Notes: generated by a model from the sequence alone, not told the origin. DNA of 64,000 bases from a virus (IMGVR_UViG_3300027779_001649:1-64000), one strand, 5' to 3'. Shown: positions 1 to 57,471, numbered from the stretch's first letter. Numbers and translations: made by a program.

Positions 1-295
1 TTGTTTTATTTTTTGAGTCATATACACTAATAGGAAACCAATTGTAAGTACCATCATCAAATGAACTGTAGTTTTCTTGATGTTCACCTAGTTCACCAGC
101 CAACACACGGTTCTGAGTTCCAGATAGAGAATGTTCTGTATCTGCCGTGACATCACATTTGTGTGAAATATAATCCTTTATACCTTCTATTACCTTAGAG
201 TTCTTTGTTAGTTCTTCATTGATAAGTTTAATATCAAAAACGTAAGGCTGTGGCATCTCTACGATATATGGTAAAATTTTTCTACCTTTTCTCAT
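1..295 (-). CDS. Hypothetical protein, 3'-truncated by window edge (possibly an AspH-like oxygenase N-terminus)
   Basis: Manual translation from ATG at 295: MRKGRKILPYIVEMPQPYVFDIKLINEEL..., open to position 1; overlaps the stop of the upstream gene. Confidence 0.6.
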   Translation of the reverse strand, partial: MRKGRKILPYIVEMPQPYVFDIKLINEELTKNSKVIEGIKDYISHKCDVTADTEHSLSGTQNRVLAGELGEHQENYSSFDDGTYNWFPISVYDSKNKT

Positions 296-1037
296 TTATC
301 CAACCCTCCATCAGTCCTGCTATATATTTATGTCCATTTGCGTTTGGGTGGTAATCCATCTTAGATATGATATGTTCATCCTTAAAGAAAGTAGAAAGAT
401 CATATCCACCCAGAGATTCTATAATGGGATATCCAATAAAATTCTTTAGTTTATTATAATAGGGAGATTCTAAAATCCATTCTGGTTTTGCAACTGGAGG
501 TAATGCTTGCATCTGTAAATAGGGAACATCAAGACTCTCACATACACTTTGATAACAAAACATCATTCTCATAGATTTCTGGAACGAAGCATCCTTCATT
601 CCAATACCCATTTTTCGCATAAGAGTAGATAATTGATCGTAAGGTAAGTCCTTCATGGCCTGAATGGCCCTATCGTGCCATTTTGAAACAGGCTTATTGT
701 TTCTAAACTGCCTGCGAGGTCTTACCCGAATCCATCCAGAAGTTGATTCTATGTCTATTCTTACATATTCACTCCACATTGCTAGAACCAACCCAACCTC
801 TCCTGGCTCAGTCTCCATAAGAGAGTCCATTATAGAACTAAGTATATACTCATTTCCAGAGGCGGGAACTGAAAGATTTATAAGCTCCATACCAAGTTTG
901 TCTGCCAACAGTTCTGGCCATATAGGAAATGGTTCAATGTCTATGTCTGGGTCATAACATACATTTGCAGGATTCTTTAGTTGCATCCTAACGTAGTCAC
1001 TAGAAAAACTGTCACCCGAAATTATTAGTTTCTTCAT
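282..1037 (-). CDS. SGNH/GDSL hydrolase-like protein
   Basis: N-terminal LIISGDSFS, internal SGN and C-terminal DYHPNANGH motifs; start reassigned to MKKLII at 1037. Confidence 0.75.
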   Translation of the reverse strand: MKKLIISGDSFSSDYVRMQLKNPANVCYDPDIDIEPFPIWPELLADKLGMELINLSVPASGNEYILSSIMDSLMETEPGEVGLVLAMWSEYVRIDIESTSGWIRVRPRRQFRNNKPVSKWHDRAIQAMKDLPYDQLSTLMRKMGIGMKDASFQKSMRMMFCYQSVCESLDVPYLQMQALPPVAKPEWILESPYYNKLKNFIGYPIIESLGGYDLSTFFKDEHIISKMDYHPNANGHKYIAGLMEGWINEKR

Positions 1038-1686
1038 AATTAAACTGTATCCTCCATAAAATTCTTTCTCCCTCAAATGCATCTCTTCTGTGCATCATTC
1101 TTAAATTATCATATAAGAATATACCATTCTCCTCCCAATACATAGGGAATGCAAACTGTTCACAGTGTTCTATAAGTTCCTGTATATCTACATATTTGTT
1201 TGTTTCAACAAGAGAACCTGGCGAGAAGTACAACATTTTATCTTTTGTAATAGGATGTTCTATAATAAAGGGCCTCTGTGTTTTATTCTTTCTAAGATAA
1301 CGCAATTGCATTTCAGTGAAACACTTGTTCTGTAGATGGTATGGTGGAAAATATGTCCCTACGATATCTTCATATTTTTCCTTATCTGGTAGATTATCAT
1401 ATGCAACCTTCATATCAACAAACCATGTTGGGGCTAAATGTCCACCAAAAAAATTATACAATGCAGTTCCATGAAATGCACCAACACCATAACTCCAATC
1501 GTTATGCCAAGGAACACTAGCTCTTTCAAACAAACCATCAGAACTTACTAACTGAACAAACCCTTCATCATCAAGAACATGTTTTTCGGTACTGAAGAAT
1601 GTCCCATAATCCATAACAATATCCTTAAAACTATCTGCGGTCAAATCAGCTGAGTTCAACTTCTCAATACCATCATTAATTAACAC
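1012..1686 (-). CDS. TauD/TfdA-family 2OG-Fe(II) dioxygenase
   Basis: WHND (HxD), TWFVDMKVAYDNLP, HPIT, YDNLRMMHRR and RILWR motifs. Confidence 0.85.
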   Translation of the reverse strand: MLINDGIEKLNSADLTADSFKDIVMDYGTFFSTEKHVLDDEGFVQLVSSDGLFERASVPWHNDWSYGVGAFHGTALYNFFGGHLAPTWFVDMKVAYDNLPDKEKYEDIVGTYFPPYHLQNKCFTEMQLRYLRKNKTQRPFIIEHPITKDKMLYFSPGSLVETNKYVDIQELIEHCEQFAFPMYWEENGIFLYDNLRMMHRRDAFEGERILWRIQFNYEETNNFG

Positions 1687-2281
1687 AATAAAATCTCTCC
1701 TTATATGCTTTTACTGAAAGAGATGGTGTTTGTAGTTTACCATCCTTTTTAAATTTATAATACAAAATGGATTGCCAGTTCTGTTTAAATCTCTTAGGCA
1801 TAGCAACTAAATGCATTTTAGGACTAAAAATCCATCCCTTCCTATCAGGAAAGTAGTTTTTAAATCTGTTTAGTGCAGTAGAATTAAGATTAACTAAATT
1901 GTTGTCTTTCAATTCTCTGCTTATAAACGCAACATCAAAACCCCCTTCTTTGGCATAGAGCATTTGCTGTTGTATCATCTCATAAGTATACTCTCGTATT
2001 CTTCTTTGATGTCCCCAGTTCATTCTTCTGTATTTTGGATTTTTAAAATGTCTATTTAATATACGAACAGAATTTCCGAATATTTCACGATGTAAAATAG
2101 TACTAAAAGCAACTAGAGTTTCATCTTCCTTAACTACTGTTACAGCCAATGAATCTACAAAGTCCAAATTGTCACCATAATTTTGTGATAATCTGTCATC
2201 TATATTTGTAGTTAAATCTACTATTTCCTCTAAGATTAGTGGATATGATTTTACGGGATATGTATCAATAACCAAATTCAT
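1676..2281 (-). CDS. Putative GNAT-fold acyltransferase
   Basis: VAFSTI...RILNRHFKNPKYR...QMLYAKEGGFDVAFISRE pattern resembles GNAT strands; weak. Confidence 0.45.
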   Translation of the reverse strand: MNLVIDTYPVKSYPLILEEIVDLTTNIDDRLSQNYGDNLDFVDSLAVTVVKEDETLVAFSTILHREIFGNSVRILNRHFKNPKYRRMNWGHQRRIREYTYEMIQQQMLYAKEGGFDVAFISRELKDNNLVNLNSTALNRFKNYFPDRKGWIFSPKMHLVAMPKRFKQNWQSILYYKFKKDGKLQTPSLSVKAYKERFYCVN

Positions 2282-3137
2282 TTTGTTTTAAGTGTTCAAA
2301 GAACGGGGCGACTTTCCAATTCTGTGTAACTCTTCCTCTATATTCATTATCAGAATCGGGGATGCCATCGTCATCTATTTCCCAATCTATCAATCTCACA
2401 AACATATCATCCAACTCATAGAAGTTAGCTAAAACAGCATGATTGGGGGATACGATATCATCTACCTTGGTTGCATCATGTACATAATACTTAAATGCTT
2501 CTTCTAGTTCTGGAAGGGTGTATGTGGCATCTTTCATATATCTACCTATATGACCAACACTCTTAAACCTTAGAATAGGTTTAATTCTTACTCTGTAGTT
2601 AGTTTCTTTCATAGTCTTACGTACTAAGTCTACTTGATCTCTTAGAGTGAACTCATTACTACCCTTTGCTATAATGGTTCCTGTATTGATAATCATTCTA
2701 GATTTCATAGAATTTACCAACGCCTTATGTTTCATATCGGCATATTCTCTACCGTTATCCAGAATTTCATATACTTCTGGATCAGCTGCCCCGTTCATAG
2801 AAATAAGAACCATCCGTAAACCAGACTTTTTAAGTTCCTGTACATACTTCTTAGAAGATAGTTTAAGACCATTTGTAGTTAAACTGACTTGATGGCCGCA
2901 CTTCTTCACATTCCGAATGATGTCAGGTAAATCTTTTCGGATTGTGGGTTCTGCACCAATCAATCTAACAATGATTCTATGGGGTAATTTTCGTAGGAAT
3001 TCGTACAGTTTTGTTACATCCATATCTGGGATATCCCGATTAGGTAAGTAACAATTTGCACATTCCATATTACATCTATGGGTCAAGTCAACCATAAGAA
3101 GATTAAAGGAGTTCTCCTCTGGGTTTAATTCTTTCAT
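2265..3137 (-). CDS. Radical SAM protein (MoaA-like fold, no C-terminal Cys cluster)
   Basis: THRCNMECANCY (CxxxCxxC), GAEPT, TTNG; start reassigned to MKELNP at 3137. Confidence 0.9.
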   Translation of the reverse strand: MKELNPEENSFNLLMVDLTHRCNMECANCYLPNRDIPDMDVTKLYEFLRKLPHRIIVRLIGAEPTIRKDLPDIIRNVKKCGHQVSLTTNGLKLSSKKYVQELKKSGLRMVLISMNGAADPEVYEILDNGREYADMKHKALVNSMKSRMIINTGTIIAKGSNEFTLRDQVDLVRKTMKETNYRVRIKPILRFKSVGHIGRYMKDATYTLPELEEAFKYYVHDATKVDDIVSPNHAVLANFYELDDMFVRLIDWEIDDDGIPDSDNEYRGRVTQNWKVAPFFEHLKQNEFGY

Positions 3138-3145
3138 ACTATTAC

Positions 3146-3487
3146 TTATGCTCTTTCTATTTCCTGTGTTACAGACCAACCTTTATTTGTATAATAGGAT
3201 GCGGTATTGTCATCATATTTTGTTGCTCTCTTATTTAGATACTCTTCACAATCATACCAATCAGGCCATGTCCTAACAGTTTTAAAAGTTTCTGCATCAA
3301 CAAGGGTTTTTGTTTCACTATATAAATCTTTATTGAGGGGAAGGGTGGCACTAGGCTTTGAAAATGAGCTCCGTTTGGCAAAATCGGCAATTGCTGCATC
3401 AACCGAAGTAAAATTAGCACCAGACTTTCTCATTATTAGTGTTTGTATTACTGCTATACCATCACTGCCTTCAAATGTTATGGCCAT
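3146..3487 (-). CDS. Small hypothetical protein (113 aa), probably late-expressed; possible distant member of the ~100-aa family
   Basis: Strong AAGGAG RBS and TATAAATA about 20 nt upstream. Confidence 0.7.
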   Translation of the reverse strand: MAITFEGSDGIAVIQTLIMRKSGANFTSVDAAIADFAKRSSFSKPSATLPLNKDLYSETKTLVDAETFKTVRTWPDWYDCEEYLNKRATKYDDNTASYYTNKGWSVTQEIERA

Positions 3488-4044
3488 TAGAGATTCTCCT
3501 TTAAACTATTTATACGATAATTAGAGAGAGCTTTCTTATAAGGGACATCAAATATACTAAATTTTAATAAAACTCTTTCCTCTGGAAAAGCTGGTACTGC
3601 ATGTCTTTTTTCTAAATTCAATAGAGCACAATTATAACTAACTGGGCCCAATTCTCCAAAGATCAAAGGGCCATAGTTATCACTCAATATTATATTGATA
3701 GCACACAAAGTACCTCTATCTGGGTGCATAGGCACTTCTGTATCTTTTTCTTGTTTATAATATCTAGGACGAATATCCTTACACTCTAATAACTCACAAA
3801 TTTGAGATTGTACTTTACTAACTTCTGGACACTCATTTATAACGTGGCCCTGTAACCATGTAGAGGGATTATAAAACCAACTTTTGCGATGAATTTTACT
3901 TTGGCGATCTACACCTTGTATGGGCAGGCCGGCATCATTAAAGGGCGTAAAATCTACATTGTTCATTTCATCTAACAGTTTTGTCTTATCGTAAGACAAG
4001 TCTATATCATAAAGAAAATCAGCCGGGGCTTTAATAGTAGTCAT
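3487..4044 (-). CDS. AspH-like 2OG-Fe(II) oxygenase
   Basis: PMHPD (HxD), CAINII, KRHAV (distal His), ERVLLKFS. Confidence 0.65.
   Translation of the reverse strand: MTTIKAPADFLYDIDLSYDKTKLLDEMNNVDFTPFNDAGLPIQGVDRQSKIHRKSWFYNPSTWLQGHVINECPEVSKVQSQICELLECKDIRPRYYKQEKDTEVPMHPDRGTLCAINIILSDNYGPLIFGELGPVSYNCALLNLEKRHAVPAFPEERVLLKFSIFDVPYKKALSNYRINSLKENL
3507..3514 (-). promoter_or_regulatory. T4-type late promoter TATAAATA
   Basis: Exact consensus just upstream of the RBS of 3146..3487. Confidence 0.7.
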
Positions 4045-4892
4045 ACCACCTTACACCTAAATGCAATTTTCTGAGACATTTCTGGCGCATCAGTTTTAGG
4101 AGATAATGTCATATGAGTTTTATCATGTGGAAAAACAATAACACGATTTGGTCTATTTCCTACAATATCACTGGGCCATCCTAAATTCCAACCATGTTTC
4201 CAATGAGTAGAACCTGTTTCTTGGTCATCATAATATACAAGTTCCCCTCCCCATTCTGGCAACCATTCTTGATTGGTTATGTATAAGACTGTATAATATT
4301 CTCCATTGTATGTACCATCTGTATCCCTATGGATTTGTCCACCTTTTTTTGATTGCCGTGTAGGAGGTCTTTCATGACATCTACCATTCAAGAAACAAGT
4401 CCACTGATTTTGGGTTTCTGGAACATCATATTTTTGATAGAAATTTTCTTTATCTACGTAAAATATTTGAGGGCCTTTTAGTCCACTTATGGTTTCTGGT
4501 ACACCATCAAGGGTTCCTTTACCATCAAAAAAATGTTTGTTTATTAATGTCCATAAATTCCAAATTAAAGGATTACGTTCCTGTACAGATTCATCACTCC
4601 ACCCAATTGGATGGCGATATAAACTGAACTTCATAACATCTTCCCAAGAAAAAGCTACTCCTGTAAGATGCATATTTTCAGACATTGCTCCTAATAGATG
4701 ACGAGCATTTATTTTTCCATGTATAGAAGGATTATATTCACTAATAGAAGGAACCATTTTTTGTTGTGGATAGTGTTTGGAATAATTCACCCCTATCCAA
4801 TGTTGATACCAAGAAACACTTTGCCCCCATTCATAAACTTCTTTATGTAGATCTGGGGATATTAATTCGTCAGCCACAATTATATCACTCAT
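4041..4892 (-). CDS. 2OG-Fe(II) oxygenase (prolyl-hydroxylase-like)
   Basis: IHRD, YTVLYITNQEWLPEWGGEL, PNRVIVFP...H; start MSDII with GAGGTG RBS. Confidence 0.85.
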   Translation of the reverse strand: MSDIIVADELISPDLHKEVYEWGQSVSWYQHWIGVNYSKHYPQQKMVPSISEYNPSIHGKINARHLLGAMSENMHLTGVAFSWEDVMKFSLYRHPIGWSDESVQERNPLIWNLWTLINKHFFDGKGTLDGVPETISGLKGPQIFYVDKENFYQKYDVPETQNQWTCFLNGRCHERPPTRQSKKGGQIHRDTDGTYNGEYYTVLYITNQEWLPEWGGELVYYDDQETGSTHWKHGWNLGWPSDIVGNRPNRVIVFPHDKTHMTLSPKTDAPEMSQKIAFRCKVV

Positions 4893-4907
4893 AGAACACC
4901 TCACATA

Positions 4908-4936
4908 ATAATATATAGTCATCCGAAAAAAGTCAA
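4908..4936 (-). promoter_or_regulatory. Sigma70-type promoter
   Basis: TTGACT-17 bp-TATTAT upstream of 4892. Confidence 0.6.
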
Positions 4937-8804: not shown

Positions 8805-9334
8805 TTACTATCACGCCGAGCTCGTACCAGATCCTTAGATTTGATTTCTTGTTTCTTTCTTCGTTTAATTGCCATCTGTAGTCTTAGTTTACTGACAAGA
8901 TCCATGAAGTTTTTACCCTCCATATGATCATATTCGTGTTGGGCGATTCGTGATTCTAATCCACGAAATGGACGTTCTGTAACCTTACCATCCTCATCTT
9001 CATATTTGAGAACGATTGATTCTGGTCTTTTGATCTTCAACCACAGGCCTGGATTAGATAAACAACCTTCATCTTCAAAAACGTGTTCTACACTATATTC
9101 TAATATCTCTGGATTAAAACAAACCAATTTTTCTCTTTTTTGAAAATCTGAAAACATTATAAAGGCTCTTTCCATGATTCCCATTTGATTCGCAGATAAT
9201 CCCAGACCATGAAAATTTTCCATAGTTTCGTTTAAATCTTCTGCTAATTGTTTCCTGTCACACTTCTCTGATACTCCAGATAGTGGGACTTGCATTATTG
9301 GATTATCGTTTCCTATTATTTTAAATATGGCCAT
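8795..9334 (-). CDS. def: Peptide deformylase
   Basis: GLGLSANQMG, EGCLS, QHEYDH motifs. Confidence 0.95.
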   Translation of the reverse strand: MAIFKIIGNDNPIMQVPLSGVSEKCDRKQLAEDLNETMENFHGLGLSANQMGIMERAFIMFSDFQKREKLVCFNPEILEYSVEHVFEDEGCLSNPGLWLKIKRPESIVLKYEDEDGKVTERPFRGLESRIAQHEYDHMEGKNFMDLVSKLRLQMAIKRRKKQEIKSKDLVRARRDSNVA

Positions 9335-14744: not shown

Positions 14745-14791
14745 TGTGCGAACTTCCTTCTCTTGTTTTTCATCACTCCAAGTGGATAACA

Positions 14792-38477: not shown

Positions 38478-38482
38478 ATCGT

Positions 38483-40113: not shown

Positions 40114-40116
40114 AGT

Positions 40117-41927: not shown

Positions 41928-41930
41928 AGT

Positions 41931-42749: not shown

Positions 42750-42768
42750 AATTCCCTACCTTTTACTA

Positions 42769-42776
42769 TATTTATA
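42769..42776 (-). promoter_or_regulatory. T4-type late promoter (gp13)
   Basis: TATAAATA about 20 nt upstream of gp13. Confidence 0.8.
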
Positions 42777-44323: not shown

Positions 44324-44349
44324 GATTACTCCTTATTCAAATCACTTCT

Positions 44350-46700: not shown

Positions 46701-46995
46701 CTATTTCTTCATTTGCGGCAGATGCGGTTATCTCATTTTCAATACAGTAAATATCTCTTGCATTAAAAAACTCTTGGGCATCTGCTTCTTCGTTAAAATT
46801 AAATCTACTTTCATAAGTATCAAATAATGCTATTGCCGTCATTACCAAACCATCGTCTGAAATTATCTTAGAGACAATTCGCCGTTTTCCTGACTTATCA
46901 TATTTCCAACTAAGTGTATGAAATTTTTCTGACATTGGATACCATTCAACATCTGTGTTCGGACGGGTTAAAGTATACGTTTGTTTAACACTCAT
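46693..46995 (-). CDS. ~100-aa family protein, copy 2
   Basis: LTRPNTDVEW, SGKR, ISDDGLV, NARD; AAGGAG RBS. Confidence 0.8.
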   Translation of the reverse strand: MSVKQTYTLTRPNTDVEWYPMSEKFHTLSWKYDKSGKRRIVSKIISDDGLVMTAIALFDTYESRFNFNEEADAQEFFNARDIYCIENEITASAANEEIDD

Positions 46996-47692: not shown

Positions 47693-47697
47693 ATCAA

Positions 47698-47705
47698 TAT
47701 ATATA
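47698..47705. promoter_or_regulatory. Palindromic late-promoter-like TATATATA, possibly bidirectional
   Basis: Exactly 5 nt from each of two divergent ATGs (47692 and 47711). Confidence 0.55.
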
Positions 47706-47710
47706 AGGGT

Positions 47711-48367
47711 ATGGAACCACCTTATAGATTAGGTCTTGTTGCCACCAGTAGAAGTGGAAGTACATATTTTCGTAGATATCTTTGCGATAAATATGGTCTA
47801 CACGATTCGGCCTCATGGTTAAAACACAATCCCTATGAAAAGATAAATGAAGCCCCCTTTGCAAAGAAACATCATATTCTAAAAATTCTAACACACTATG
47901 TTCCTGATGATGAAATAGATGAAGTTATATCAGAATCAGAAACAGTATGGTTATATAGAAAGAATACGTTTAAGCAGTTTCTCTCTCATGTCTACCGACT
48001 AATAACCAAGATAAATTTGGTATATAAGAAGGAAGAAATAGAGTTTTTAAAAAATAGTATTCCAAACAATAGTATTGTAGCCACAACAGAACAATACGAT
48101 ACTTTCATGAGAAGACTTGAAAAATTTTGGGATTTATTTTATAGTAGAAATAAAGGAACACTAGTAGAATATGAAAAATTTGTTTCTGATCCAAAAGAAG
48201 TTGGTTGGGAAATTATGGAAGACTATAATTTAGAATGGATAACGTGGGAATCTATGGAGCCGGAATCACATGGATGGCCTGATATTAAAATACCATTGAA
48301 AATGTCCATAGATTATGAAAATAAATTTAAAAATATAGAGGAAATTAGGAAATGGTTTAATGGGTAG
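47711..48367 (+). CDS. Sulfotransferase-like protein (Stf0-type)
   Basis: ATSRSGSTY PAPS-binding loop; LYRKNTFKQFLS; VEYEKF. Confidence 0.7.
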   Translation: MEPPYRLGLVATSRSGSTYFRRYLCDKYGLHDSASWLKHNPYEKINEAPFAKKHHILKILTHYVPDDEIDEVISESETVWLYRKNTFKQFLSHVYRLITKINLVYKKEEIEFLKNSIPNNSIVATTEQYDTFMRRLEKFWDLFYSRNKGTLVEYEKFVSDPKEVGWEIMEDYNLEWITWESMEPESHGWPDIKIPLKMSIDYENKFKNIEEIRKWFNG

Positions 48368-49097
48368 ATATTGTTTAATTTGCACTCCACGGTCTGGTTC
48401 ATTTTATGTTCAAAATTATATATCCAAAATTTTTGACTTAGAATTTGGTAGTGAATGGTTTGGTAGAGTTAAGCATGTTGGATATAAAGGTATGGAGACT
48501 TCTTCAGTAGATATAGACCACAGTGTTAATGAAGACTTATTAACTAATGAAGAAATAAGTAAGAGATTAGTATATTTAAAAAACTACGAAACCTCATTTA
48601 TTATTAAATGTATGCCGTTCCAATTATCAAATACAATAGAGAGAAAAGACTTACCCGATAAAGAAAAAATGGAAGTTGCAACAAAAATTATGAAGAATTT
48701 TGATTTGATTTATATGGAAACTAAAGATAAAGTATCCCAGTTTTGTTTTGATGTTATATCTAAGAATCAAGATATTGGTAAAAGAAATTTCACCCACTAC
48801 AATCCTGATATAAGACAAATACCCCTAGAAAACTCAATGACTGCAACTAGAGAAAACTACGAGAGTTTTTGTGAACGTCAAGACTTCGTTACTAGGTTTC
48901 AAGAAAAAAATTGGAAAGGTGAGCCCATAATAGTATGGGAAGATTTTATAAATAGTCCTAATATTGAAATGACAAAAATTAAAGATTGGTATAAAATTGA
49001 TGAAAAAAATATTACAGTGAATAGACCCATCATCTCACATGCAGCTTATAAATTGGTCTTTAGTAATTATGGAGAAATTGAAAAATGGTTTGGATAG
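48360..49097 (+). CDS. Sulfotransferase-like protein
   Basis: CTPRSGSFY, GSEWF, IIKCMP, VWEDF; paralog of the preceding gene. Confidence 0.65.
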   Translation: MGRYCLICTPRSGSFYVQNYISKIFDLEFGSEWFGRVKHVGYKGMETSSVDIDHSVNEDLLTNEEISKRLVYLKNYETSFIIKCMPFQLSNTIERKDLPDKEKMEVATKIMKNFDLIYMETKDKVSQFCFDVISKNQDIGKRNFTHYNPDIRQIPLENSMTATRENYESFCERQDFVTRFQEKNWKGEPIIVWEDFINSPNIEMTKIKDWYKIDEKNITVNRPIISHAAYKLVFSNYGEIEKWFG

Positions 49098-49657
49098 ACG
49101 GAAAAAATATGCCTAAATGGCACAGGAATGATGATTTTCTACATGACCTTGCTATATCATTGGTAGAAGTTCATACCAGAGAACCTCAGAACGAACCAGA
49201 AACAAATATGTTTAAGATAGCAGATGGTCTTGATACCTCTGATCCATTTGTTAAGGAAGCAGTAAGGCACTTCAATGTAATAAGAGAAGACTTAGCATGT
49301 AAGAGTGCAGTTCTACATGGTGATTTGTGGAACGAGAATATAATCATAAAAGAAAATGGTAGATTATCAGGACTGATTGATTGGGAACACACTCAAATAG
49401 GCGACCCTCATTGGGACTTCCGTATGATTAGAAGATTTATAGGCTGGGACGATTTACATTGGCTTATCACTTTGTATAATGCTAAGGCTCAATATAAAAT
49501 TAATTCTGCTACTATTTACATCTTAGATAAACTAGCACTTTGCCATCAGTATCAATATAGACTAAGAAAAAATGATAGCCCTCTTTGGAACGACACCGCA
49601 TTATTTAAAGAGTATATGGAAAGATGGCCAGTGTGCGTTAATGAAATATCCGACTAG
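49085..49657 (+). CDS. APH/choline-kinase-like phosphotransferase (C-lobe only)
   Basis: LHGDLWNENI, GLIDWE, GDPHWDF. Confidence 0.8.
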   Translation: MVWIDGKNMPKWHRNDDFLHDLAISLVEVHTREPQNEPETNMFKIADGLDTSDPFVKEAVRHFNVIREDLACKSAVLHGDLWNENIIIKENGRLSGLIDWEHTQIGDPHWDFRMIRRFIGWDDLHWLITLYNAKAQYKINSATIYILDKLALCHQYQYRLRKNDSPLWNDTALFKEYMERWPVCVNEISD

Positions 49658-50237
49658 AACATATAACTTTTATAATAAGCCTATTAATCTAGATATAGTT
49701 CCCAGATGCACCCTCCTTTGTTCCAAGTGTATGAGACAATCAGATTTTTATAAGTTTGTAGATAAAAGTAAATTAGAAGAGATAAGTATAAAAGACTACG
49801 AAAAGATTCTCAACTGTTTTTCATATGTTGAATGGTGTGGTCAAACTGGTGACCCCATATTTCATACTAAATTCTTTACTCTTCTTGAGATGAGCAGGGG
49901 TACTAAATTAGACATCCATACTGCCGCCTCACATAAACCTAAAGAATGGTATAAGAAAGCATTTAAAACTAATAAAGATGCAAAGTGGATATTTGGGGTA
50001 GATGGGTTACCAAAGGACAGCCATATCTATAGAATAAATCAAGATGGTGAATTCCTATTTGAAGTTATGAAAATGGGATCAGATATGGGTTTAGAGATTC
50101 AGTGGCAGATGATAAAGTTTAAGTATAATCAAAATAACATAGATGAAGTAATGCAGCTCTGTAGAGATAATTCTATCAGTTTTAAATTAATAAGATCCTC
50201 AAGGTTCGTATCAGATGACCCACTCAGACCAATTTAA
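49641..50237 (+). CDS. Radical SAM protein, paralog of 39256..40113
   Basis: RCTLLCSKC, GQTGDP, TAASHK..WYKKAF, FGVDGLP, YRINQDGE. Confidence 0.88.
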   Translation: MKYPTRTYNFYNKPINLDIVPRCTLLCSKCMRQSDFYKFVDKSKLEEISIKDYEKILNCFSYVEWCGQTGDPIFHTKFFTLLEMSRGTKLDIHTAASHKPKEWYKKAFKTNKDAKWIFGVDGLPKDSHIYRINQDGEFLFEVMKMGSDMGLEIQWQMIKFKYNQNNIDEVMQLCRDNSISFKLIRSSRFVSDDPLRPI

Positions 50238-50715
50238 ACCAAGATGTATATCAGGACAATGTTTAGGGCATTCTAATAAGGGGTACTTAGTTCCTTGTTG
50301 TTTTGTAGATGCATTTTATGATAATATTGAGAAAAAGAAACTCATACATCATGATAACGATAAACTTAATGCATTGTGGGATACATCCTTAAAAATTTCC
50401 AATAATAACCATATACATGATATAACAATGAGTGATATATGGATGGATTTTTATACCATGTTACAGGATAAAGATCAAGAGAAACCTTTAATGTGTATTA
50501 AGTGTTGTGACCCTGTATATACTAAGGAGTTAAAAGAAGGTGAAATAGCTCCAACACGATTTAGCCAGAAGACTAATCCAGTACATGCTGTCAGCAGAAG
50601 AAGTACAGAAGTAACTCATGTGATAAAGATTAATAGTATGTCAGTAAATGATGAACTTTTGGTGATGACCTCATCTGGCCGACCTAAGCCAAAAGATTAT
50701 AAACAAAGAGAATGA
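50215..50715 (+). CDS. Stand-alone SPASM/twitch-like Cys-rich protein
   Basis: PRCISG...GYLVPCCF...MCIKCC. Confidence 0.7.
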   Translation: MTHSDQFKPRCISGQCLGHSNKGYLVPCCFVDAFYDNIEKKKLIHHDNDKLNALWDTSLKISNNNHIHDITMSDIWMDFYTMLQDKDQEKPLMCIKCCDPVYTKELKEGEIAPTRFSQKTNPVHAVSRRSTEVTHVIKINSMSVNDELLVMTSSGRPKPKDYKQRE

Positions 50716-51854
50716 CGGTCAAGATAATCCATGATGTTATCCTTATGAACTATCGTTCCATCATTAACAATCGCCTTCACCCTAAAATCATTAGGTAATG
50801 GTGAGTAGAACTCTTTCTGAGCTCTTCCTTCCATCAATCTAGTTTTTCCTATACCATATGCAAATTCCCTATCATATAATGCAATGAAGTCTCTCAACAT
50901 CATCTTTGCTTTCTGGAATCTTTCTGGGTCACTCCTAGGACTGTGATTATACCAAAACATATTTCTATTATAATGTTGATTAATTGACCACTTGTGTATA
51001 TCTGGATCTCTAAAGAACGGCTGATAATTTTCTAGGTCAATCTCATCTGCTTTTATATTTTGTAAGAAACGGAATGACTGTGTGATGAATGTATACCGTG
51101 TTATTGTCCACCACATTTCATAATTCCATTCCTCATTTTCTGGGTCATCTAGATTTGGTTTCTTTCTTGGGTCTATTGCATACCCCAATGGTTTGTTGGG
51201 ATCACGAACTGCGTCATCTACTTGTGGGGGGTAACCGACACTACCAAACAATCTATCAGCTTCGCACCCACTAGTATAAACATTAATATCTGGATTCGCC
51301 ATACCATAAATGTTTCCTGTCATATCTAAACGATGCGGGCCTTTAATAACATAATCTTCCCATAACTTGGGATAATGTTTAATAACTGCGTCACCTCCAG
51401 CAATGATATGCAGCTGTTCTCTAGGACAAACTTCTTTCAGTGCGTATAACATAGCAGTACTATCTACACCACCAGAATAGAATACCTCAATATGTTTACC
51501 CATATCTCTTAATTCTTCTGCACGTTTAATCATAAGGTCATTAAAGTCTGCGTTCTCTACCTCTGGATAATATTTGTAATCCAAAACAGGATAATACTTT
51601 TCCATATTATCCATATTAAACACATATTCATCTACACCCAAAGAATCACTTATGTATGAACTCTTAGGACGATGGCAATATTGAGTCATAAATTCTTCAC
51701 GTTGTCTCGCTTCCTTATACTCTTCAAAGAACTCTTTCTCAAATTCAGGCCATCCGTACTGTCCCTTTCTAGGCGCACCTTTAACAACCTTATCCATAGC
51801 CCTTCTGAAGTCATCAGAAATATATACATACTTAATTGTGCTTTTCATAGTCAC
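50697..51854 (-). CDS. PP-loop ATPase (asparagine synthase C-domain-like), paralog B
   Basis: VFYSGGVDST, SGCEADRLFG, QPFF, KMMLRDFI. Confidence 0.75.
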   Translation of the reverse strand: MTMKSTIKYVYISDDFRRAMDKVVKGAPRKGQYGWPEFEKEFFEEYKEARQREEFMTQYCHRPKSSYISDSLGVDEYVFNMDNMEKYYPVLDYKYYPEVENADFNDLMIKRAEELRDMGKHIEVFYSGGVDSTAMLYALKEVCPREQLHIIAGGDAVIKHYPKLWEDYVIKGPHRLDMTGNIYGMANPDINVYTSGCEADRLFGSVGYPPQVDDAVRDPNKPLGYAIDPRKKPNLDDPENEEWNYEMWWTITRYTFITQSFRFLQNIKADEIDLENYQPFFRDPDIHKWSINQHYNRNMFWYNHSPRSDPERFQKAKMMLRDFIALYDREFAYGIGKTRLMEGRAQKEFYSPLPNDFRVKAIVNDGTIVHKDNIMDYLDRHSLCL

Positions 51855-52533
51855 TCCAATTATGTGGTTTGTTTGCAGAATGCGTAAAGTGAACTAGTTT
51901 TATGTCTGGATGAAATTCTTCTCCTAGATATATGTACTCGTTACCTGTTACTTCCCTGTACTTCCTAGTAATCTGAACTTGCCAAGTAGACATCTTCTTA
52001 CCGTAGTTAATACCAGAATCAACTACCCACCTAGTAAACCATTCATTGGGTAGGGTAATTAATTCTAATCTCTCTTTAACCGAATCCTCTACAAAATACT
52101 GTTCACCATTTACGGGGCCTTTGGTCACACCATTTTCAATGTAGTGTCTCTGCCATCCGTTTATGTCTTTCATAAACTTATCGTAGATATATTTGCAGTC
52201 CTTCGGATAGTACTTAAAGAATCCACCGTTGATAGAGTATCCTTCTTTCTTTGTGTCTCTCCACCACCCAGGCATTGCAAGGAACTGTCCACGCATAATA
52301 GGGTAGTCAAATATCCTTTCATAGTCTCCCATAAGAAGAACGTCTATATCCATGACACAAATAGGTGTATCCTGATCTAGCTGCATACCCCACATCTTAT
52401 TCCATTGCAACAGCACCTCTGGATGATATGGTTCATGTATCCAATGCAGATCATAATTTGATAATTTACTTTCAAGATAATCTTCATATTCTTGTCCATA
52501 CTTATCACCAATTCTTATTAATATAACTTTCAT
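51832..52533 (-). CDS. Glycosyltransferase-like protein (GT-A)
   Basis: IGDKYG, WNKM, MDID (DxD), INGGF, GEQYF, VHFT. Confidence 0.7.
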   Translation of the reverse strand: MKVILIRIGDKYGQEYEDYLESKLSNYDLHWIHEPYHPEVLLQWNKMWGMQLDQDTPICVMDIDVLLMGDYERIFDYPIMRGQFLAMPGWWRDTKKEGYSINGGFFKYYPKDCKYIYDKFMKDINGWQRHYIENGVTKGPVNGEQYFVEDSVKERLELITLPNEWFTRWVVDSGINYGKKMSTWQVQITRKYREVTGNEYIYLGEEFHPDIKLVHFTHSANKPHNWSDYEKHN

Positions 52534-53888
52534 TTTTTAGTTTTCATGCAACGGGATTTCAGAGGATTAGTTCCAATCCAATAATAGAAATTTGCTTCAT
52601 CTAACGCCTCAAAAAATTTATAATATGACTTCCATATAATATCTAAGGGGTACTTTAATAAGACTTTATGATAACTGAAAATATTACTTGTGTTAACAAA
52701 TACATTTTTTCCCTTGACTTTTTCAGCAAGTATGTTATAATCCATATTCAATAAGTCCCACTCATTATATGTAATAACAAACTTCTCTGTCATTTCTTTC
52801 TGTGCCTGTCTAACTTCTTCCCAAGTCCCGTACTCTACAAACCGTTCTTGTTGTCTAATTTCATGATTCCACACGAAATAAACATTGGAATAAACACGAC
52901 CTAACATTTCAATCTCATCTTTATCCATATTGAATTCTACAATTCTCCTTTTGACTCGTAGTATATCTTTATGTAGATCATAAAATGCAACTTCACCATC
53001 AAAATCTAATTTCTGTGCATACACTTCGGTGCTATAACCAGCACAAGGCGACAGTATGAGATCAAATTTAAAATCCAACCAGTTAGTTATAAGTTTACTA
53101 TTAATTTTTAGATGTTCATTGTTCTCTACATAAAAATTAGATCTATTAGTGGTGTTTTGTTGAAGTGTACGAAAATAAGAATCTCTATTTGGAGGCCCAT
53201 CATATAAGAACTTACCTCGTTCTATTGAATTCCAGATATCATTCTGTAATAGCCGTCTATTACTACCATATGAATAAGCCTTACTGCTTCTCTCTTCCTT
53301 ATTAAAATTCACTATCTTTATTAAGCCCTTTGGTTTAATCCAAGGCGGAGTATAGTCATCGTGATAGTTATCTGAAGACCGAATATATTTGGGCCATCTT
53401 TCAAATAGGTTTGGTGACCCTACCGATCTCCATATATCTAAATTTACTTCTAAGTGCTGTCGGTGTAAATACGCCTCTTTGTTTGGGTGGGATATTATGT
53501 GACCTCTACAATAAAGTTGAGTTTTAGTGAATTCTTCAAAGGAAGTAAGAGGAGTCGTTGCCTTCCCATCAATAACTTCTGTTACACGAAATATCATACC
53601 AACAGAACATATCATTGCATGGGTGTACCGGCGATTTTTCTTTAATGTCTTATCTAGTTCACTTTCCAAACATAATACAACATTGTGATTACTACCACCT
53701 CCAGTTGGTCCACCAGATATTTGCATATAAGTCATCTGTGTTTGTCTATAAACACCATGATCCCATTCTAATTTATCTGGATAAGTCACAACATATAAAT
53801 GTGGTTTGCCCTGTAATCTACGTGTCAAGTCTCCCTTCTGCACTTCTTTATGTAGAAGTTTTTTAAAATCATCTAAAGAATTAACCAC
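52530..53888 (-). CDS. Hypothetical protein (possible modification enzyme)
   Basis: 452-aa ORF in a coupled operon; C-terminal PCAG/FYD/SNIF segments hint at a Rossmann methyltransferase-like fold. Confidence 0.55.
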   Translation of the reverse strand: MVNSLDDFKKLLHKEVQKGDLTRRLQGKPHLYVVTYPDKLEWDHGVYRQTQMTYMQISGGPTGGGSNHNVVLCLESELDKTLKKNRRYTHAMICSVGMIFRVTEVIDGKATTPLTSFEEFTKTQLYCRGHIISHPNKEAYLHRQHLEVNLDIWRSVGSPNLFERWPKYIRSSDNYHDDYTPPWIKPKGLIKIVNFNKEERSSKAYSYGSNRRLLQNDIWNSIERGKFLYDGPPNRDSYFRTLQQNTTNRSNFYVENNEHLKINSKLITNWLDFKFDLILSPCAGYSTEVYAQKLDFDGEVAFYDLHKDILRVKRRIVEFNMDKDEIEMLGRVYSNVYFVWNHEIRQQERFVEYGTWEEVRQAQKEMTEKFVITYNEWDLLNMDYNILAEKVKGKNVFVNTSNIFSYHKVLLKYPLDIIWKSYYKFFEALDEANFYYWIGTNPLKSRCMKTKK

Positions 53889-54573
53889 GGGTAATTTCTT
53901 TCAGAGCATCTGGACCAAATTGTTTAACAATAGACTTTTTCATTAACAATTCTCTTTCCTTATTACCACCGCCATGAATTATAAAGTGAAATCTATTTTC
54001 ATTTGAACTGTTTAAGGCTTCATGATTAACACCATTATCAAACCAAAACCCTGTACAATTTTCAAAAGGAAGTTCTTCTTTTGTAGAAGCACGTCTTAGG
54101 TAACAATTGTCTGGTTGATAAAACGCAAGGTTAATAGCAGAAGAAATGTTACGTTTTCTACCTTCGGCTGTTCTTTTTTGATTGGAATCATTATGAGATT
54201 CTATACTACCGCCTGGTTTAAGTAACATAAACCTACAACGTCTGTATTGTTTGTGTGGGAAATCTTCTAACCATCTCTTAGTCTCAGGTGCTATTTCTTG
54301 TAATTCTGTCCAACCCCAATCAACAGCATCTTCTTCTAGATTATATGCAGAAGGGTTTTTGGTATGATGCCATCCCACAGAAATGTCCTTACCTTTCTCA
54401 ACAAAACCATGTAGTGCAGAAGAACACCAACCATCACCTGTTCCATAACGATGGTCTACAAAGAACCCTTCGTCATAAACCTGTTGAGCTTCTTTGATAC
54501 ATGCCTCTGGTATTTCCAAATCAATTTTAAGATACCATATGTCATTTGCTCTGCACCATTCTACTGCATTCAT
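53881..54573 (-). CDS. Aspartyl/asparaginyl beta-hydroxylase-like 2OG oxygenase
   Basis: RCRFMLLKPGGSIESHND, NHEALN, RFHFIIH. Confidence 0.85.
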   Translation of the reverse strand: MNAVEWCRANDIWYLKIDLEIPEACIKEAQQVYDEGFFVDHRYGTGDGWCSSALHGFVEKGKDISVGWHHTKNPSAYNLEEDAVDWGWTELQEIAPETKRWLEDFPHKQYRRCRFMLLKPGGSIESHNDSNQKRTAEGRKRNISSAINLAFYQPDNCYLRRASTKEELPFENCTGFWFDNGVNHEALNSSNENRFHFIIHGGGNKERELLMKKSIVKQFGPDALKEITRG

Positions 54574-55244
54574 TTTCCTATTACCATGAATCTTTCAAAA
54601 CCGTTAAGTAATTTTTTACTACCAGAGTACCAAACATCCATCATTCGTGCCTGTTCTATTAACTCATCTACACTCTCTACAGTATTGATATGGTCTGGAC
54701 AGTTTTCTTTTTGACTTGTTGATTGTAGAACAAAAAGTGAATTTTCTAATTGTGGATTTATTTCTCTAAACTTCCACATAGGAAACATGTGTTCACAAGA
54801 AGTATTCACCACCACATCATAGACTTGTGCATGTTTATCTTGCACATCTTCTAAATCTCTACAATATCTTAAAGACTTAAACATAACATCTCTTCGGAGA
54901 GAACGATACCTTTTTGGTTCATCCTTATACCTTCTGTTTAATTTGAAGCTGATAAAATGTGCATCGTGGTCTATTTCAAAATTTGTAACAAATTTAGCAC
55001 CTACGTTATCAACCAGTATTGCAGTTATATAGTGGGCATACCATCCTCCCAGAAGGGCAACATGTTCTGGAACAATATTCAAATTGATTAATTCATTTCC
55101 TAACCACAACTTACCTTCTACCTGTGAGGCGTTCATGGATTCTACAAGTCTTTCAAATGCCCAAGGTCTCTCTCTTTGAGTTTCCATATAGGCTCGTGTC
55201 CAATTGTTTGCAGTCAGAGGGTTGTAAGGAATATGGTCTACCAT
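54570..55244 (-). CDS. Class I SAM-dependent methyltransferase-like protein
   Basis: KLWL, LLGGWY, FEID, VNTSCEHM, RFMVIG. Confidence 0.7.
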   Translation of the reverse strand: MVDHIPYNPLTANNWTRAYMETQRERPWAFERLVESMNASQVEGKLWLGNELINLNIVPEHVALLGGWYAHYITAILVDNVGAKFVTNFEIDHDAHFISFKLNRRYKDEPKRYRSLRRDVMFKSLRYCRDLEDVQDKHAQVYDVVVNTSCEHMFPMWKFREINPQLENSLFVLQSTSQKENCPDHINTVESVDELIEQARMMDVWYSGSKKLLNGFERFMVIGK

Positions 55245-55996
55245 AATTTCTTTAACTCCTCAATTTCAAACATATCTTCATAAGTCTCTTTGGTACTATT
55301 ATTAAAAAGACAGATTTTTTGGTCTTCCCTTATCTTTCTTTCTTCCATATCCTCTGGAAATATGTTTCCTTTATACCAAGAATAAACGTCACCCTTTGGA
55401 TATACATTCACATAAGAAACTTTCTCATCCCATACATTATACCAATGATGATTAAGATAATTATCTATAGTAGAATATGTAAAGAATATAACCTCTGGAT
55501 TTTTTTCTATATGTGCATAGATACTTCCCATTTGAGATTTATTCCATCTCAGTACTGATGAATTTAATGGAGTTGATTTTATCTGTCCATAATTTTTCCG
55601 ACAGGTATCTATATCATTCCACCAACCTCTAACGATATAGGGCTTATTCATCCGTAATTCAAAGAAATATTTTAAGTCTTTTTGTATAAGACAGTCCAAA
55701 TCTAGATACAAAAACATATCTCCATTCATTGTTGGAAATAGGTTCTCGTTGAACATATACATTTTTCTATAAGCCCAAAACCTGTTAGTATCGGGATCAT
55801 AATGTTTATCCCAAGTTGTGGGTAATTTTAAGTCAAAACTATTTTGGGGATTATCTGTTAGACAATAAAAATTGAAAGGTATAGAACAATGCTTTTCACA
55901 TTGGTTCTTTAGGTTAAGAACATAGTCATTACTATATTTGTCACCCCACTTCACACATAATATTGTGTTCACAGACATTTGTGATTCAAGATGCAT
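55238..55996 (-). CDS. Glycosyltransferase-like protein (GT-A)
   Basis: CVKWGDKY, FYCLTD, YLDLD (DxD), LNSSV; start may be 55978. Confidence 0.75.
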   Translation of the reverse strand: MHLESQMSVNTILCVKWGDKYSNDYVLNLKNQCEKHCSIPFNFYCLTDNPQNSFDLKLPTTWDKHYDPDTNRFWAYRKMYMFNENLFPTMNGDMFLYLDLDCLIQKDLKYFFELRMNKPYIVRGWWNDIDTCRKNYGQIKSTPLNSSVLRWNKSQMGSIYAHIEKNPEVIFFTYSTIDNYLNHHWYNVWDEKVSYVNVYPKGDVYSWYKGNIFPEDMEERKIREDQKICLFNNSTKETYEDMFEIEELKKLW

Positions 55997-55999
55997 TTA

Positions 56000-56509
56000 T
56001 TACTTCATAAAAGAATGATATATTGATATAGCCTCTAATGGTGATGTAGATTTTCGTAGGTCTGCTTTTTTCTTTTTAGCTTTACTATTTTTTACTTCAT
56101 CACGATCAAAGAATTTCAATTTGAGTTTAAAAAGTTCTTCTTTATTTTGACTGTCTTCGTCATCAAAATTAAAGATTAAGTCTTCTATATTTAAGAGGAT
56201 AATTTCCTCTTTGTCTTTTTGGTCTGGTTCATTTCCCTCTTGGTCATATCCATATAGATTATTATCACGAGCATAATTTTCAAAAGAATTTCTGAATATT
56301 TGTTTCTCATTATCTATTTTGGCTGCTGTAGATTGGTCAAGACTCTCATAAGACCACTCTTCCAACAAAGAGTTGAACTGATCATCAGTTTCATCAACAA
56401 GCAGAAAATGTTCTCTTGCAATTTTACCATCGCTCCATAAAACACAAACAGTATCATGTTCGGGGTTTGAATAGTAAGCGTTAATTATTTTTTCAGAAAA
56501 GACCGCCAT
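56000..56509 (-). CDS. Hypothetical protein
   Basis: 169-aa ORF with AAGGAG RBS after a late promoter. Confidence 0.7.
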   Translation of the reverse strand: MAVFSEKIINAYYSNPEHDTVCVLWSDGKIAREHFLLVDETDDQFNSLLEEWSYESLDQSTAAKIDNEKQIFRNSFENYARDNNLYGYDQEGNEPDQKDKEEIILLNIEDLIFNFDDEDSQNKEELFKLKLKFFDRDEVKNSKAKKKKADLRKSTSPLEAISIYHSFMK

Positions 56510-56520
56510 TCTTTATCTCC

Positions 56521-57471
56521 TTATCCTTTATTTATACGCAAGGCATATGTGGTAATGGTGGAATTTGATCCGTTTGGAAATTCTTGGGCACGATAATCAT
56601 CCCCAACTTGTCTAGTCTGGTAGTTACCAGCACCACCAGTAAGTCTGGTGTTAACCATAGCTGTTCCTCTAGTATTACCACTACCTGAGGCTTCTATAGT
56701 GTAACTAATCTGATATCCATCTGACGATTCTGAGGCAGTTTCTCGTATCCATTCAGTTAGAAGTGCATCTAATGTACCTTCGGTAAAAGTTTGTAAATGA
56801 CGGGCACTATCCGTTATATAAACAGGATATCTGGCAGGCGCCGTATCGGTTCCTGATCGTTTGTGTAAGTAATAACTTGTAATTGTTGTTGGTTGGTCTA
56901 AAGTTTCTGGAATTCCTCCGGCGGTATATGCACTTACATCAGCTCTTGTATCTATGAAAACAGGGTCAGTTGAAACTACTGCATAATTAGTTGCAGGGGT
57001 TACAGAAGTAGTAATACTATATGTTCCAGCCGTAGTAGCACTCTCTGTTCCAGAAATAAGTAGGTCTACAGCAGGATGTAAGAAGGTATCTTTAATGTCT
57101 GCGATAGTCATTGCTTGTAAGTCATTATCCCCATTAATATATAGTGGCCAAGTTGTTCCTGTATCTGATGTAGGTGATACTGATGCTTTGGCTTGATCTA
57201 CACGGTCATAACTAACCGTAACCTCAGCAGGTTCTGCCGTAGTAGCTTCACTAGGAAATGCAGTTGCAGACTGAGATGTTGCACCCGCCTTCAATCTAGT
57301 ATCACTCATAGCAGTTAAGTCTCCAGCTACACTAGTAGATACAGTTAGAGTAACAGAAGGACTTGTTCCATAGAGATAACATATCTGATTAGTCCACTCA
57401 AGAACTTCAGCAGTTGTCATTTCTTGTATGTCATTAGAGCTAGTAATATATACTGGTTTTCTAACTGCCAT
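56521..57471 (-). CDS. Putative virion structural protein with three internal repeats
   Basis: PVYITSSNDIQEMT / PLYINGDNDLQAMT / PVYITDSARHLQTFT; DTR/NTR in each unit. Confidence 0.65.
   Translation of the reverse strand: MAVRKPVYITSSNDIQEMTTAEVLEWTNQICYLYGTSPSVTLTVSTSVAGDLTAMSDTRLKAGATSQSATAFPSEATTAEPAEVTVSYDRVDQAKASVSPTSDTGTTWPLYINGDNDLQAMTIADIKDTFLHPAVDLLISGTESATTAGTYSITTSVTPATNYAVVSTDPVFIDTRADVSAYTAGGIPETLDQPTTITSYYLHKRSGTDTAPARYPVYITDSARHLQTFTEGTLDALLTEWIRETASESSDGYQISYTIEASGSGNTRGTAMVNTRLTGGAGNYQTRQVGDDYRAQEFPNGSNSTITTYALRINKG
56529..56536 (-). promoter_or_regulatory. T4-type late promoter heading the 56509-50697 operon
   Basis: TATAAATA about 20 nt upstream of 56509. Confidence 0.75.

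Follow-up and report, generated by a model that had tools for sequence, protein, structure and literature searches.

The window analyzed here comprises the 64,000 nucleotides that form bases 1-64000 of the 88,823-bp viral contig IMGVR_UViG_3300027779_001649, and its subject is the load of tailoring-enzyme, iron-sulfur (Fe-S) helper and TRAP transporter genes, together with a family of AsnB-like PP-loop ligases, that is carried between the genes of a T4-type backbone. The source is an uncultured marine T4-like myovirus of which about half of the genome is present (CheckV completeness 49%), and no tRNAs were detected in the phage sequence. At the DNA level the nearest deposited phages are the Pelagibacter phages Mosig and HTVC008M and the Methylophilales phage Melnitz, with around 74-78% identity in the capsid gene only, and the core genes follow the same order as in the annotated regions of these three phages, which places the source among T4-like (Kyanoviridae-type) phages. 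An initial annotation, made by a model from the sequence, had described the load as one dispersed, largely late-expressed tailoring network that supplies its own cofactors. Its observation was largely real and its interpretation is partly supported: the load probably consists of several units of differing evolutionary behavior, placed at the usual slots and in a host-recognition region beside gp13, and not of one network. The features are listed below, where ORF stands for open reading frame, SAM for S-adenosylmethionine, 2OG for 2-oxoglutarate and APS for adenosine 5'-phosphosulfate, and where TATAAATA is the motif that we take to be the T4-type late-promoter consensus.

282-3487, minus strand: operon behind the TATAAATA at 3507, with a 113-residue ORF, a radical SAM enzyme, a 201-residue unknown, a TauD oxygenase and an SGNH-like gene
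2265-3179, minus strand: the radical SAM enzyme of this first operon, TrsS/MoaA-like
4041-4922, minus strand: 2OG-FeII_Oxy_3-like oxygenase with a marginal score
5036-9334, minus strand: accessory genes shared with relatives, namely a CobS-like AAA ATPase, a 799-residue 'peptidase' (PHROG 459) and a peptide deformylase
9321-12359, minus strand: slot between peptide deformylase and gp46, with a B12-binding-type radical SAM enzyme (515 residues), a methyltransferase-like gene and a pyruvate kinase barrel
12356-42749, minus strand: T4-type backbone with the slots interleaved, by Pfam gp46, gp47, gp55, UvsW, UvsY, gp23, gp22, gp21, gp20, gp19, gp18, gp17, gp16, gp15 and gp14, and in addition gp13
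14286-15805, minus strand: gp46-gp47 slot, with a small-molecule kinase of the P-loop type, unconfirmed as an APS kinase, next to a radical SAM enzyme at 14792-15805
19421-20871, minus strand: UvsW-UvsY slot, with two 2OG oxygenases and a DUF59/SufT-like gene
25541-27281, minus strand: gp21-gp20 slot, with a nitroreductase and an orphan DctP
32446-35040, plus strand: divergent operon with the Cys-rich u108, a TAXI binding protein at 32790-33725 and a TRAP permease of the fused type at 33661-35040
35011-36515, minus strand: AsnB-like PP-loop A (35011-36204) and its 103-residue partner (36204-36515)
38172-38477, minus strand: gp17-gp16 slot, with an IscA/ErpA-like A-type Fe-S carrier
38885-40113, minus strand: gp16-gp15 slot, with a radical SAM enzyme (39256-40113) and a SPASM-like ORF (38885-39286)
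42772-46019, minus strand: a GNAT gene followed by DctP (43247-44323), DctM (44350-45594) and DctQ (45576-46019)
46020-47692, minus strand: a 2OG oxygenase (46020-46700), a 100-residue partner (46693-46995) and a degenerate PP-loop gene (46985-47692)
47711-50715, plus strand: opposite-strand operon with two sulfotransferase-like genes, an APH-type kinase, a radical SAM enzyme (49572-50237) and a SPASM-like ORF (50215-50715)
50697-57486, minus strand: conserved cluster arm with PP-loop B (50697-51854), u233, u452, AspH (53881-54573), u224, a glycosyltransferase-like (GT-like) gene (55238-55996), u169 (behind the TATAAATA at 56529) and u321

The gene order confirms that the enzymes are slotted between T4-type core genes, as had been described. 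A single dispersed network is not what the relatives show, since slot cargo differs in every one of them and the TRAP cassette is found at varying sites. The same slots hold oxygenases in Mosig, and the gp17-gp16 slot is occupied by a tryptophan halogenase and a PhyH-type oxygenase in HTVC008M and by an F5/8 type C domain protein in Melnitz. Among the fetched loci many slots are empty (UvsY-UvsW in 12/31, gp18-gp17 in 7/13 and gp47-gp46 in 6/11), and in most of them the window carries the largest cargo seen or close to it.

The region beside gp13 was surveyed by searching IMG/VR with a profile of the PP-loop family, and 47 full-length loci were annotated; 33 loci with the PP-loop motif region only (L259-L291) were left out of the reciprocal count. 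The cluster runs from the tail fibre through u321, u169, the GT-like gene, u224, AspH, sometimes a radical SAM gene, u452 and u233 to one or more PP-loop ligases, sometimes with a P-loop kinase or a B12-type radical SAM gene, and the protein of around 100 residues, and then to the APH kinase and two sulfotransferase-like genes on the opposite strand, the GNAT gene, gp13 and gp14. Of 32 loci holding gp13, 18 have at least five of the cluster families and 15 have at least eight, and DctQMP is present in only 3 of the 18. The earlier proposal of a tailoring cluster beside virion genes was partly right, and the cluster beside gp13 is the host recognition cluster region that the main text of PMC7029224 describes for pelagimyophages. 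The protein u452 (452 residues), encoded downstream of AspH, may be fused to AspH in some viruses. For the region 52530-54573, a lead with a score of 0.83 was obtained in the ESM Atlas to a 688-residue viral cluster with Asp_Arg_Hydrox.

Three PP-loop proteins had been annotated, and two of them carry the SGGxDS motif (35011-36204 and 50697-51854), but the third (46985-47692) is a degenerate homolog that has lost it; a fourth copy lies beyond the window at 86255-87589. The family comprises 45 homolog clusters that all lack a Pfam domain and, in the few cases where a name is given, are called only 'hypothetical protein'; it gave no match in NCBIfam, in Pfam (E<=1) or in the PDB (phmmer and profile). 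[quoted passage not shown] The phage proteins share with these enzymes the SGGxDS motif and the fold of the C-terminal PP-loop synthetase domain of asparagine synthetase B. Unlike them, they lack the N-terminal Ntn glutaminase, with lengths of 385-397 residues, no Pfam GATase match and structural alignments that mostly begin around residue 82 of the model and at residues 143-192 of targets of about 500 residues; they also differ in showing no sequence match to Pfam, NCBIfam or PDB entries and in occurring as up to five tandem paralogs. By analogy, the PP-loop proteins probably activate a carboxylate by adenylation. Two of the copies each abut a protein of around 100 residues, and these partners are paralogous to each other (35% identity, E 8e-16). 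The five tandem SGGxDS paralogs are found in locus L003 (around 3.7-9.5 kb), with gp16 on one side and DctQMP on the other; gp17 and a TAXI pair come next.

The TRAP transporters of the initial annotation were recovered, in the form of a complete DctPQM, a TAXI binding protein with its permease, and the orphan DctP. The three DctPQM genes abut at 43247-46019 and match PF03480 (96.6 bits), PF06808 (203.3) and PF04290 (69.0), and the TAXI-TRAP pair passes TIGR02122 (102.1 vs 84.35) and TIGR02123 (325.2 vs 320.65), with a permease of 459 residues against a model of 615 positions, a short form also found in the related record G002. DctP and the TAXI protein have hydrophobic N-terminal leaders, and the orphan DctP (26214-27281) is without one. 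In DctP there is a KCRQTG stretch, whose arginine is presumably the carboxylate-binding residue, and the PDB matches include 7ug8, a 'ketoacid-binding protein' (E 7.6e-41), 2hzk/2hzl (E 1.4e-38), which we take to be TakP, and a lactate-binding protein from Thermus. This type of DctP points to monocarboxylic 2-oxoacids or lactate as the likely ligands, and not to 2-oxoglutarate; the TAXI protein is only a distant relative of those whose structures are solved (best E 1e-13).

In IMG/VR, 21 loci carry the DctQMP cassette (67-95% identity), and it occupies no fewer than five sites: it follows gp13/GNAT or gp23, adjoins a tail-tube-like ORF and UvsY, stands between gp16 and gp17, or is part of large or jumbo contigs. 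Of five long records four have gp23, as do three of the four that were reached via DctM. The phage copies of DctP share 75-99% identity, and the nearest cellular copies found, in a pattern-seeded scan that detects only fairly close relatives, are at 46-52% identity in freshwater Burkholderiales-type metagenome-assembled genomes, with Pelagibacteraceae copies at around 30%. This divergence suggests that DctP may have resided in phages for a long time. A literature search found no paper naming a phage TRAP transporter. In 50,697 deposited phage records, IscA, DUF59, TRAP and the PP-loop family are all without a convincing match.

To compare the load across whole genomes, nine records were scored as follows, with size and completeness in brackets and with 2OG counts de-duplicated by coordinates over two families.

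G000 (window contig): radical SAM 3 (5 by motif), DctM 2, IscA 1, DUF59 1, 2OG 6
G001 (228 kb, 65%): radical SAM 9, DctM 1, IscA 1, DUF59 1, 2OG 1
G002 (154 kb, 85%): radical SAM 1, DctM 2, IscA 1, DUF59 1, 2OG 6
G003 (244 kb, 74%): radical SAM 8, DctM 1, IscA 1, DUF59 1, 2OG 1
G004 (116 kb, 35%): radical SAM 0, DctM 1, IscA 0, DUF59 0, 2OG 0
G005 (177 kb, 100%): radical SAM 2, DctM 0, IscA 1, DUF59 0, 2OG 5
Mosig: radical SAM 2, DctM 0, IscA 0, DUF59 0, 2OG 10
HTVC008M: radical SAM 1, DctM 0, IscA 0, DUF59 0, 2OG 16
Melnitz: radical SAM 0, DctM 0, IscA 0, DUF59 0, 2OG 3

The TRAP-positive records thus hold 6, 1, 6, 1 and 0 places with a 2OG oxygenase and the TRAP-negative ones 5, 10, 16 and 3, and since these counts peak in phages without TRAP and are lowest in the jumbo contigs with it, the oxygenase load is unrelated or inverse to TRAP. 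The transporters had been proposed to supply 2-oxoglutarate to the oxygenases, with the gain and loss of enzyme and supply genes across relatives as the check, and in these nine records the link between oxygenases and TRAP fails it.

The Fe-S genes fared better: both IscA and DUF59, which had been reported and are present at 38172-38477 and 20566-20871, occur in all three records with at least three radical SAM genes. DUF59 directly heads the radical SAM arrays of G001 and G003 and one radical SAM gene in G002; the arrays consist of six radical SAM genes in the first case (G001:C1:203376-211466) and of five in the second (G003:C1:158803-166470), both in large T4-like contigs. IscA passes TIGR00049 (68.5 vs 58.8) and has one cysteine in GGGCSG and a C-terminal CGC, the cysteines of which we assume to be the cluster ligands. 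The DUF59/SufT-like protein matches PF01883 (49.6 bits vs 23.5) and stays under the cut-off of TIGR02945 (104.6 vs 143.4). In around 16 related contigs DUF59 fills the UvsY-2OG-2OG-UvsW slot, with two allele classes at around 95% and around 50% identity to the window copy, a pattern that fits old residence or repeated replacement; the two classes, between UvsY and the 2OG pair, are found in L105-L112 and in L129 and L134-L137, respectively. In most of 58 loci IscA lies in another conserved neighborhood, homologous to the contig at 85.5-88.8 kb. At that place in the contig (85574-88796), the PP-loop gene 86255-87589 sits where the relatives have IscA, which is instead found between gp17 and gp16.

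The five radical SAM enzymes that had been counted are all there, as ORFs with CxxxCxxC at 2265-3179, 9321-10868, 14792-15805, 39256-40113 and 49572-50237. Four of the five are above the PF04055 cut-off, and the fifth (49572-50237) matches PHROG 21308 (E 4.3e-13) and is 43% identical to 39256-40113. In NCBIfam, 9321-10868 groups with the B12-binding class and 2265-3179 is nearest to TrsS/MoaA, all far below equivalog cut-offs. In both paralogous pairs (38885-40113 and 49572-50715) the radical SAM and SPASM-like parts are separate ORFs that overlap by 31 and 23 nt, and the same split arrangement was seen in the relatives L002, L019, L152 and L212; the split reflects either a genuine enzyme of two proteins or a frameshift that has been conserved. 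No ORF of the contig carries a tail of alternating Cys-X type.

Of the seven or more 2OG/Fe oxygenases claimed, family hidden Markov models (HMMs) assign six to ORFs of the window (TauD at 1012-1686, 4041-4922, 19421-20047, 20020-20565, 46020-46700 and the Asp_Arg_Hydrox protein AspH at 53881-54573), among which 4041-4922 is marginal, with 26.4 bits against a cut-off of 27 and 27.2 bits in another search. A seventh was not found when ten unknown ORFs were rescanned (Pfam, E<=1, noise only), and these ten have no PHROG match or only weak ones; two further 2OG oxygenases lie beyond the window at 80.2-81.5 kb. Both sulfotransferase-like proteins hold up, 47711-48367 (ST1) by fold and 48360-49097 by the family profile (E 8.9e-17). 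The model of ST1 has a pLDDT of 88.8, and 49 of the 50 Foldseek rows listed belong to the sulfotransferase family, with template modeling scores of 0.37-0.54 and E down to 2e-4; PF13469 reaches 20.7 bits, under its cut-off of 27, and is found in 4 of 68 homolog clusters, and searches of the PDB with ST1 by phmmer and by profile gave nothing meaningful.

Among the remaining enzymes, the APH-type kinase (49085-49657), the nitroreductase (25541-26203) and a methyltransferase, in the form of a methyltransferase-like fragment of 175 residues (10868-11395), agree with the initial annotation. Of two GNAT-like and two GT-like genes, one each was reproduced (42772-43275, and 55238-55996 with a PHROG E of 1e-4) but the second was not. 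The SGNH hydrolase (282-1082) is weak, with only a GDS motif and a sub-threshold DUF6071 match. The pyruvate kinase (11382-12359) has the barrel (PF00224, 211 bits) but not the C-domain, with no PK_C match; it covers positions 7-339 of a model of 477 positions and its 259 bits are under the equivalog cut-off of 432, so that it does not qualify as a full pyruvate kinase. The APS kinase, and with it the supply of 3'-phosphoadenosine 5'-phosphosulfate (PAPS), was not reproduced, as no CysC or other APS-kinase HMM matched: PF01583 has no match in the contig at E<=10, NCBIfam gave the P-loop kinase only weak shikimate-kinase matches, no APS kinase is among its 48 PDB matches (E<=1), and no sulfurylase is among the Pfam hits. 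As a lead only, the P-loop kinase has viral clusters as its language-model neighbors, with PF01583 in 29-100% of their members.

The timing of expression was examined through TATAAATA. Its count in the window, 14 against 10.1 expected, is by itself uninformative because 13 of 100 shuffles reach 14. Its placement is that of T4-type late promoters, as 10 of the 17 motifs of the contig lie 19-44 nt upstream of a same-strand start, where 3.4% of positions qualify, and three operon-leading ORFs stand behind such motifs. Three motifs had been named as promoters: those at 3507 and 56529 have the 19-44 nt spacing, but from that at 32457 it is only 5 nt to the ATG (32470) of u108, a Cys-rich ORF of around 100 residues (32446-32772), and for this reason the u108 transcript may be leaderless. 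Many relatives keep the u108 gene (CxxC...CxxC) on the opposite strand, flanked by gp18 and gp17. Upstream of gp13 the motif is kept in 34 of 36 relatives and upstream of u108 in 11 of 17; the corresponding figures are 0/55 for PP-loop B, 0/26 for ST1, 0/57 for IscA, 0/34 for DUF59, 0/42 for the oxygenase 2OGb, 0/32 for DctP and 2/24 for DctQ. The 'largely late' expression is not supported, given that the enzyme genes are without a late motif of their own in the window and in relatives and that the operon of the sulfotransferases, the kinase and the fifth radical SAM enzyme is on the opposite strand. With their own motifs absent, late expression of the enzymes can be deduced from operon position only. 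Sigma-70-type motifs at 42-58 kb (62 vs 71.2 expected) are uninformative, and a 10/12 match 32 nt before ST1 is a consensus match only.

In the reading that we favor, three kinds of units would be combined. The first would comprise accessory genes common to relatives (CobS, the 'peptidase', peptide deformylase, the UvsW/UvsY oxygenase pair, AspH and IscA), and the second cassettes that move from one slot to another (DctQMP, TAXI-TRAP, radical SAM with SPASM, DUF59 and the nitroreductase). The third would be co-inherited between the tail fibre genes and gp13, and would contain the glutaminase-less AsnB-type ATP-dependent ligases with their partners of around 100 residues, two sulfotransferase folds of the PAPS type, kinases of the APH and P-loop types, AspH, the GT-like and GNAT genes and several unknowns. 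The target that this cluster may tailor would bear a carboxylate and be either a host-surface glycan or a phage protein, and it would be amidated, sulfated, phosphorylated and hydroxylated. IscA and DUF59 would help to mature the Fe-S enzymes of the phage. The TakP-type and TAXI TRAP transporters would be optional plug-ins; the small organic acids taken up through them in the course of an infection could serve the carbon and energy metabolism of the host and possibly the ligases, and the transporters would not provide 2-oxoglutarate for the oxygenases. The transporter is treated as optional because most clusters are without DctQMP and the cassette stands without the ligase in the available flank of 8 of the 21 loci. 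The gene identities, synteny, mobility and co-occurrence are direct observations.

That a single late-expressed network supplies itself with 2-oxoglutarate through TRAP, with Fe-S clusters, with PAPS and with pyruvate/ATP we now regard as very unlikely. In favor of such a network, the full set of enzyme and helper genes is there, three enzyme operons start behind late-promoter motifs, the Fe-S helpers co-occur with radical SAM-rich records, and the neighbors of the P-loop kinase would fit an APS kinase; against this stand the behavior of the oxygenase load toward TRAP, the ketoacid/TakP/lactate type of DctP, a kinase with P-loop-level matches only, a pyruvate kinase without its C-domain, the lack of late motifs in front of the enzyme genes and the slot-by-slot variation of the cargo. 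The possibility that misassembly joined host DNA, in the form of the TRAP genes and others of cellular type, to phage DNA is hardly credible and already contradicted. What speaks for it is that, among 50,697 deposited phage records, TRAP permeases are absent apart from three weak matches (24-27% identity). However, T4-type genes flank the same cassettes in many independent IMG/VR contigs, the GC content is even along the sequence (0.33-0.39 in 4-kb bins), and the phage copies of DctP are far closer to each other than to any cellular copy found (at most 52%). Misassembly is also unlikely because Logan contigs bridge the cassette-core junctions, those of gp13-GNAT-DctPMQ and gp18-TAXI in run X1 and that of TAXI permease-PP-loop A-gp17 in both runs (X1 and X2).

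The main rival is a pathway of import and ligation, in which the AsnB-like ligases would amide-link carboxylates imported by TRAP to the proteins of around 100 residues or to a glycan, and the cluster would decorate the product. We hold it to be rather unlikely, and several data weigh in its favor. The ligase family is present in all five TRAP-positive whole records and in none of the four TRAP-negative ones, its distance from DctM is no more than 10 kb at 13 of 21 loci, compared with 3 of 174 control loci, and this co-occurrence argues, against the favored reading, for a tighter coupling than an optional plug-in. Reciprocally, of 47 loci with a full-length ligase 12 have a TRAP component nearby, compared with 2 of 174 controls; the PP-loop gene adjoins that of the TAXI permease in the window as well as in G002 and L258; both pairs of ligase and small protein are paralogous to each other, and ligase and transporter would both handle carboxylates. 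Also against the favored reading, homologs of the radical SAM enzymes of the window, the only ones that this homology-based count includes (unrelated ones such as the CxxxCxxC ORFs of L113 are uncounted), are not enriched beside DUF59 (0/36 loci) or IscA (4/58). The whole-record comparison covers nine records only, four of them found via DctM, with G003 and G004 forming one lineage, several incomplete (35-85%), and a six-frame first look that under-counts, as it detects three of the five radical SAM genes of the window contig; and every substrate, as well as all timing, is inferred. Against the rival of import and ligation, 15 of 18 ligase-bearing clusters are without DctQMP, the 8 of 21 cassettes already mentioned have no ligase in their flank, and the signal is partly explicable by clade membership and by the ascertainment of TRAP-positive records through DctM. 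A wider proposal, that the gp13-side cluster is an undescribed pathway whose ligases amide-join an imported or host organic acid to a protein of around 100 residues or to a surface glycan, which is then sulfated, phosphorylated and hydroxylated, with TRAP as an interchangeable intake, appears to us decidedly unlikely.

Host recognition clusters and hypervariable regions were described in pelagimyophages and cyanomyophages by Zaragoza-Solas et al. 2020 (PMC7029224), whose account includes glycosyltransferases, lipopolysaccharide genes, radical SAM cassettes and 'substrate transport' genes, with AspH, peptide deformylase and CobS as shared genes. As in those phages, the backbone here is T4-like and a large variable island separates the baseplate/fibre genes from the neck genes. 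Unlike what that account covers, the island here holds a conserved set of at least 13 families that includes AsnB-like ligases, sulfotransferase folds and kinases, and it is accompanied by complete DctPQM and TAXI-TRAP systems, the main text of that paper naming no TRAP system. Nutrient uptake by phages is represented by pstS in cyanophages and pelagimyophages (PMC12379486) and by complete ATP-binding cassette (ABC) systems in huge phages (bioRxiv 10.64898/2026.10.24.761521). The window resembles these cases, as far as those accounts go, in carrying transport genes of host type, by which uptake in the infected cell is presumably increased, and differs in having a whole secondary transporter (binding protein and both membrane parts) in two TRAP subtypes, located within the structural module; the cultured relatives of this phage have around 140-150 kb. 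As a general phenomenon this is known. New are the complete TRAP systems, the AsnB-like ligases with their small partners and the degree to which the gp13-side cluster is conserved.

Culturing the marine T4-like phages that infect abundant heterotrophs is difficult, and the way in which an infected cell processes carbon is shaped by the accessory genes of these phages. Recurring complete TRAP importers extend phage-driven uptake from PstS-like binding proteins to whole secondary transporters of organic acids, and a high oxygenase count does not imply a supply line for the co-substrate. The gp13-side cluster around an unannotated ligase family is a clonable target with which to ask whether phages modify fibres, a small protein or the host envelope.

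Three minor observations concern the samples and the gene calls. In contigs of run X2 a joint from 32772 to 36596 omits 3,823 bases (the TAXI binding protein, the permease, PP-loop A and the 103-residue ORF); its depth is above the local level and its shorter side has only 21 letters, which makes it weak, and it is possibly a co-occurring variant without the TAXI/PP-loop A cassette. Over 30000-49999 the summed contig depth is highest at core genes (gp17 around 64, gp15 around 110) and flat over the cassettes (around 13 in X1 and 4-10 in X2), a pattern that fits several related phages in the samples sharing core genes and not cargo. Finally, the gene call at 27682-28361 is ambiguous because the plus-strand ORF 27737-28012 overlaps two minus-strand ORFs between gp21 and gp20; this ORF has tblastn matches of 57-77% identity in many relatives, where they lie on the strand opposite to the structural genes.

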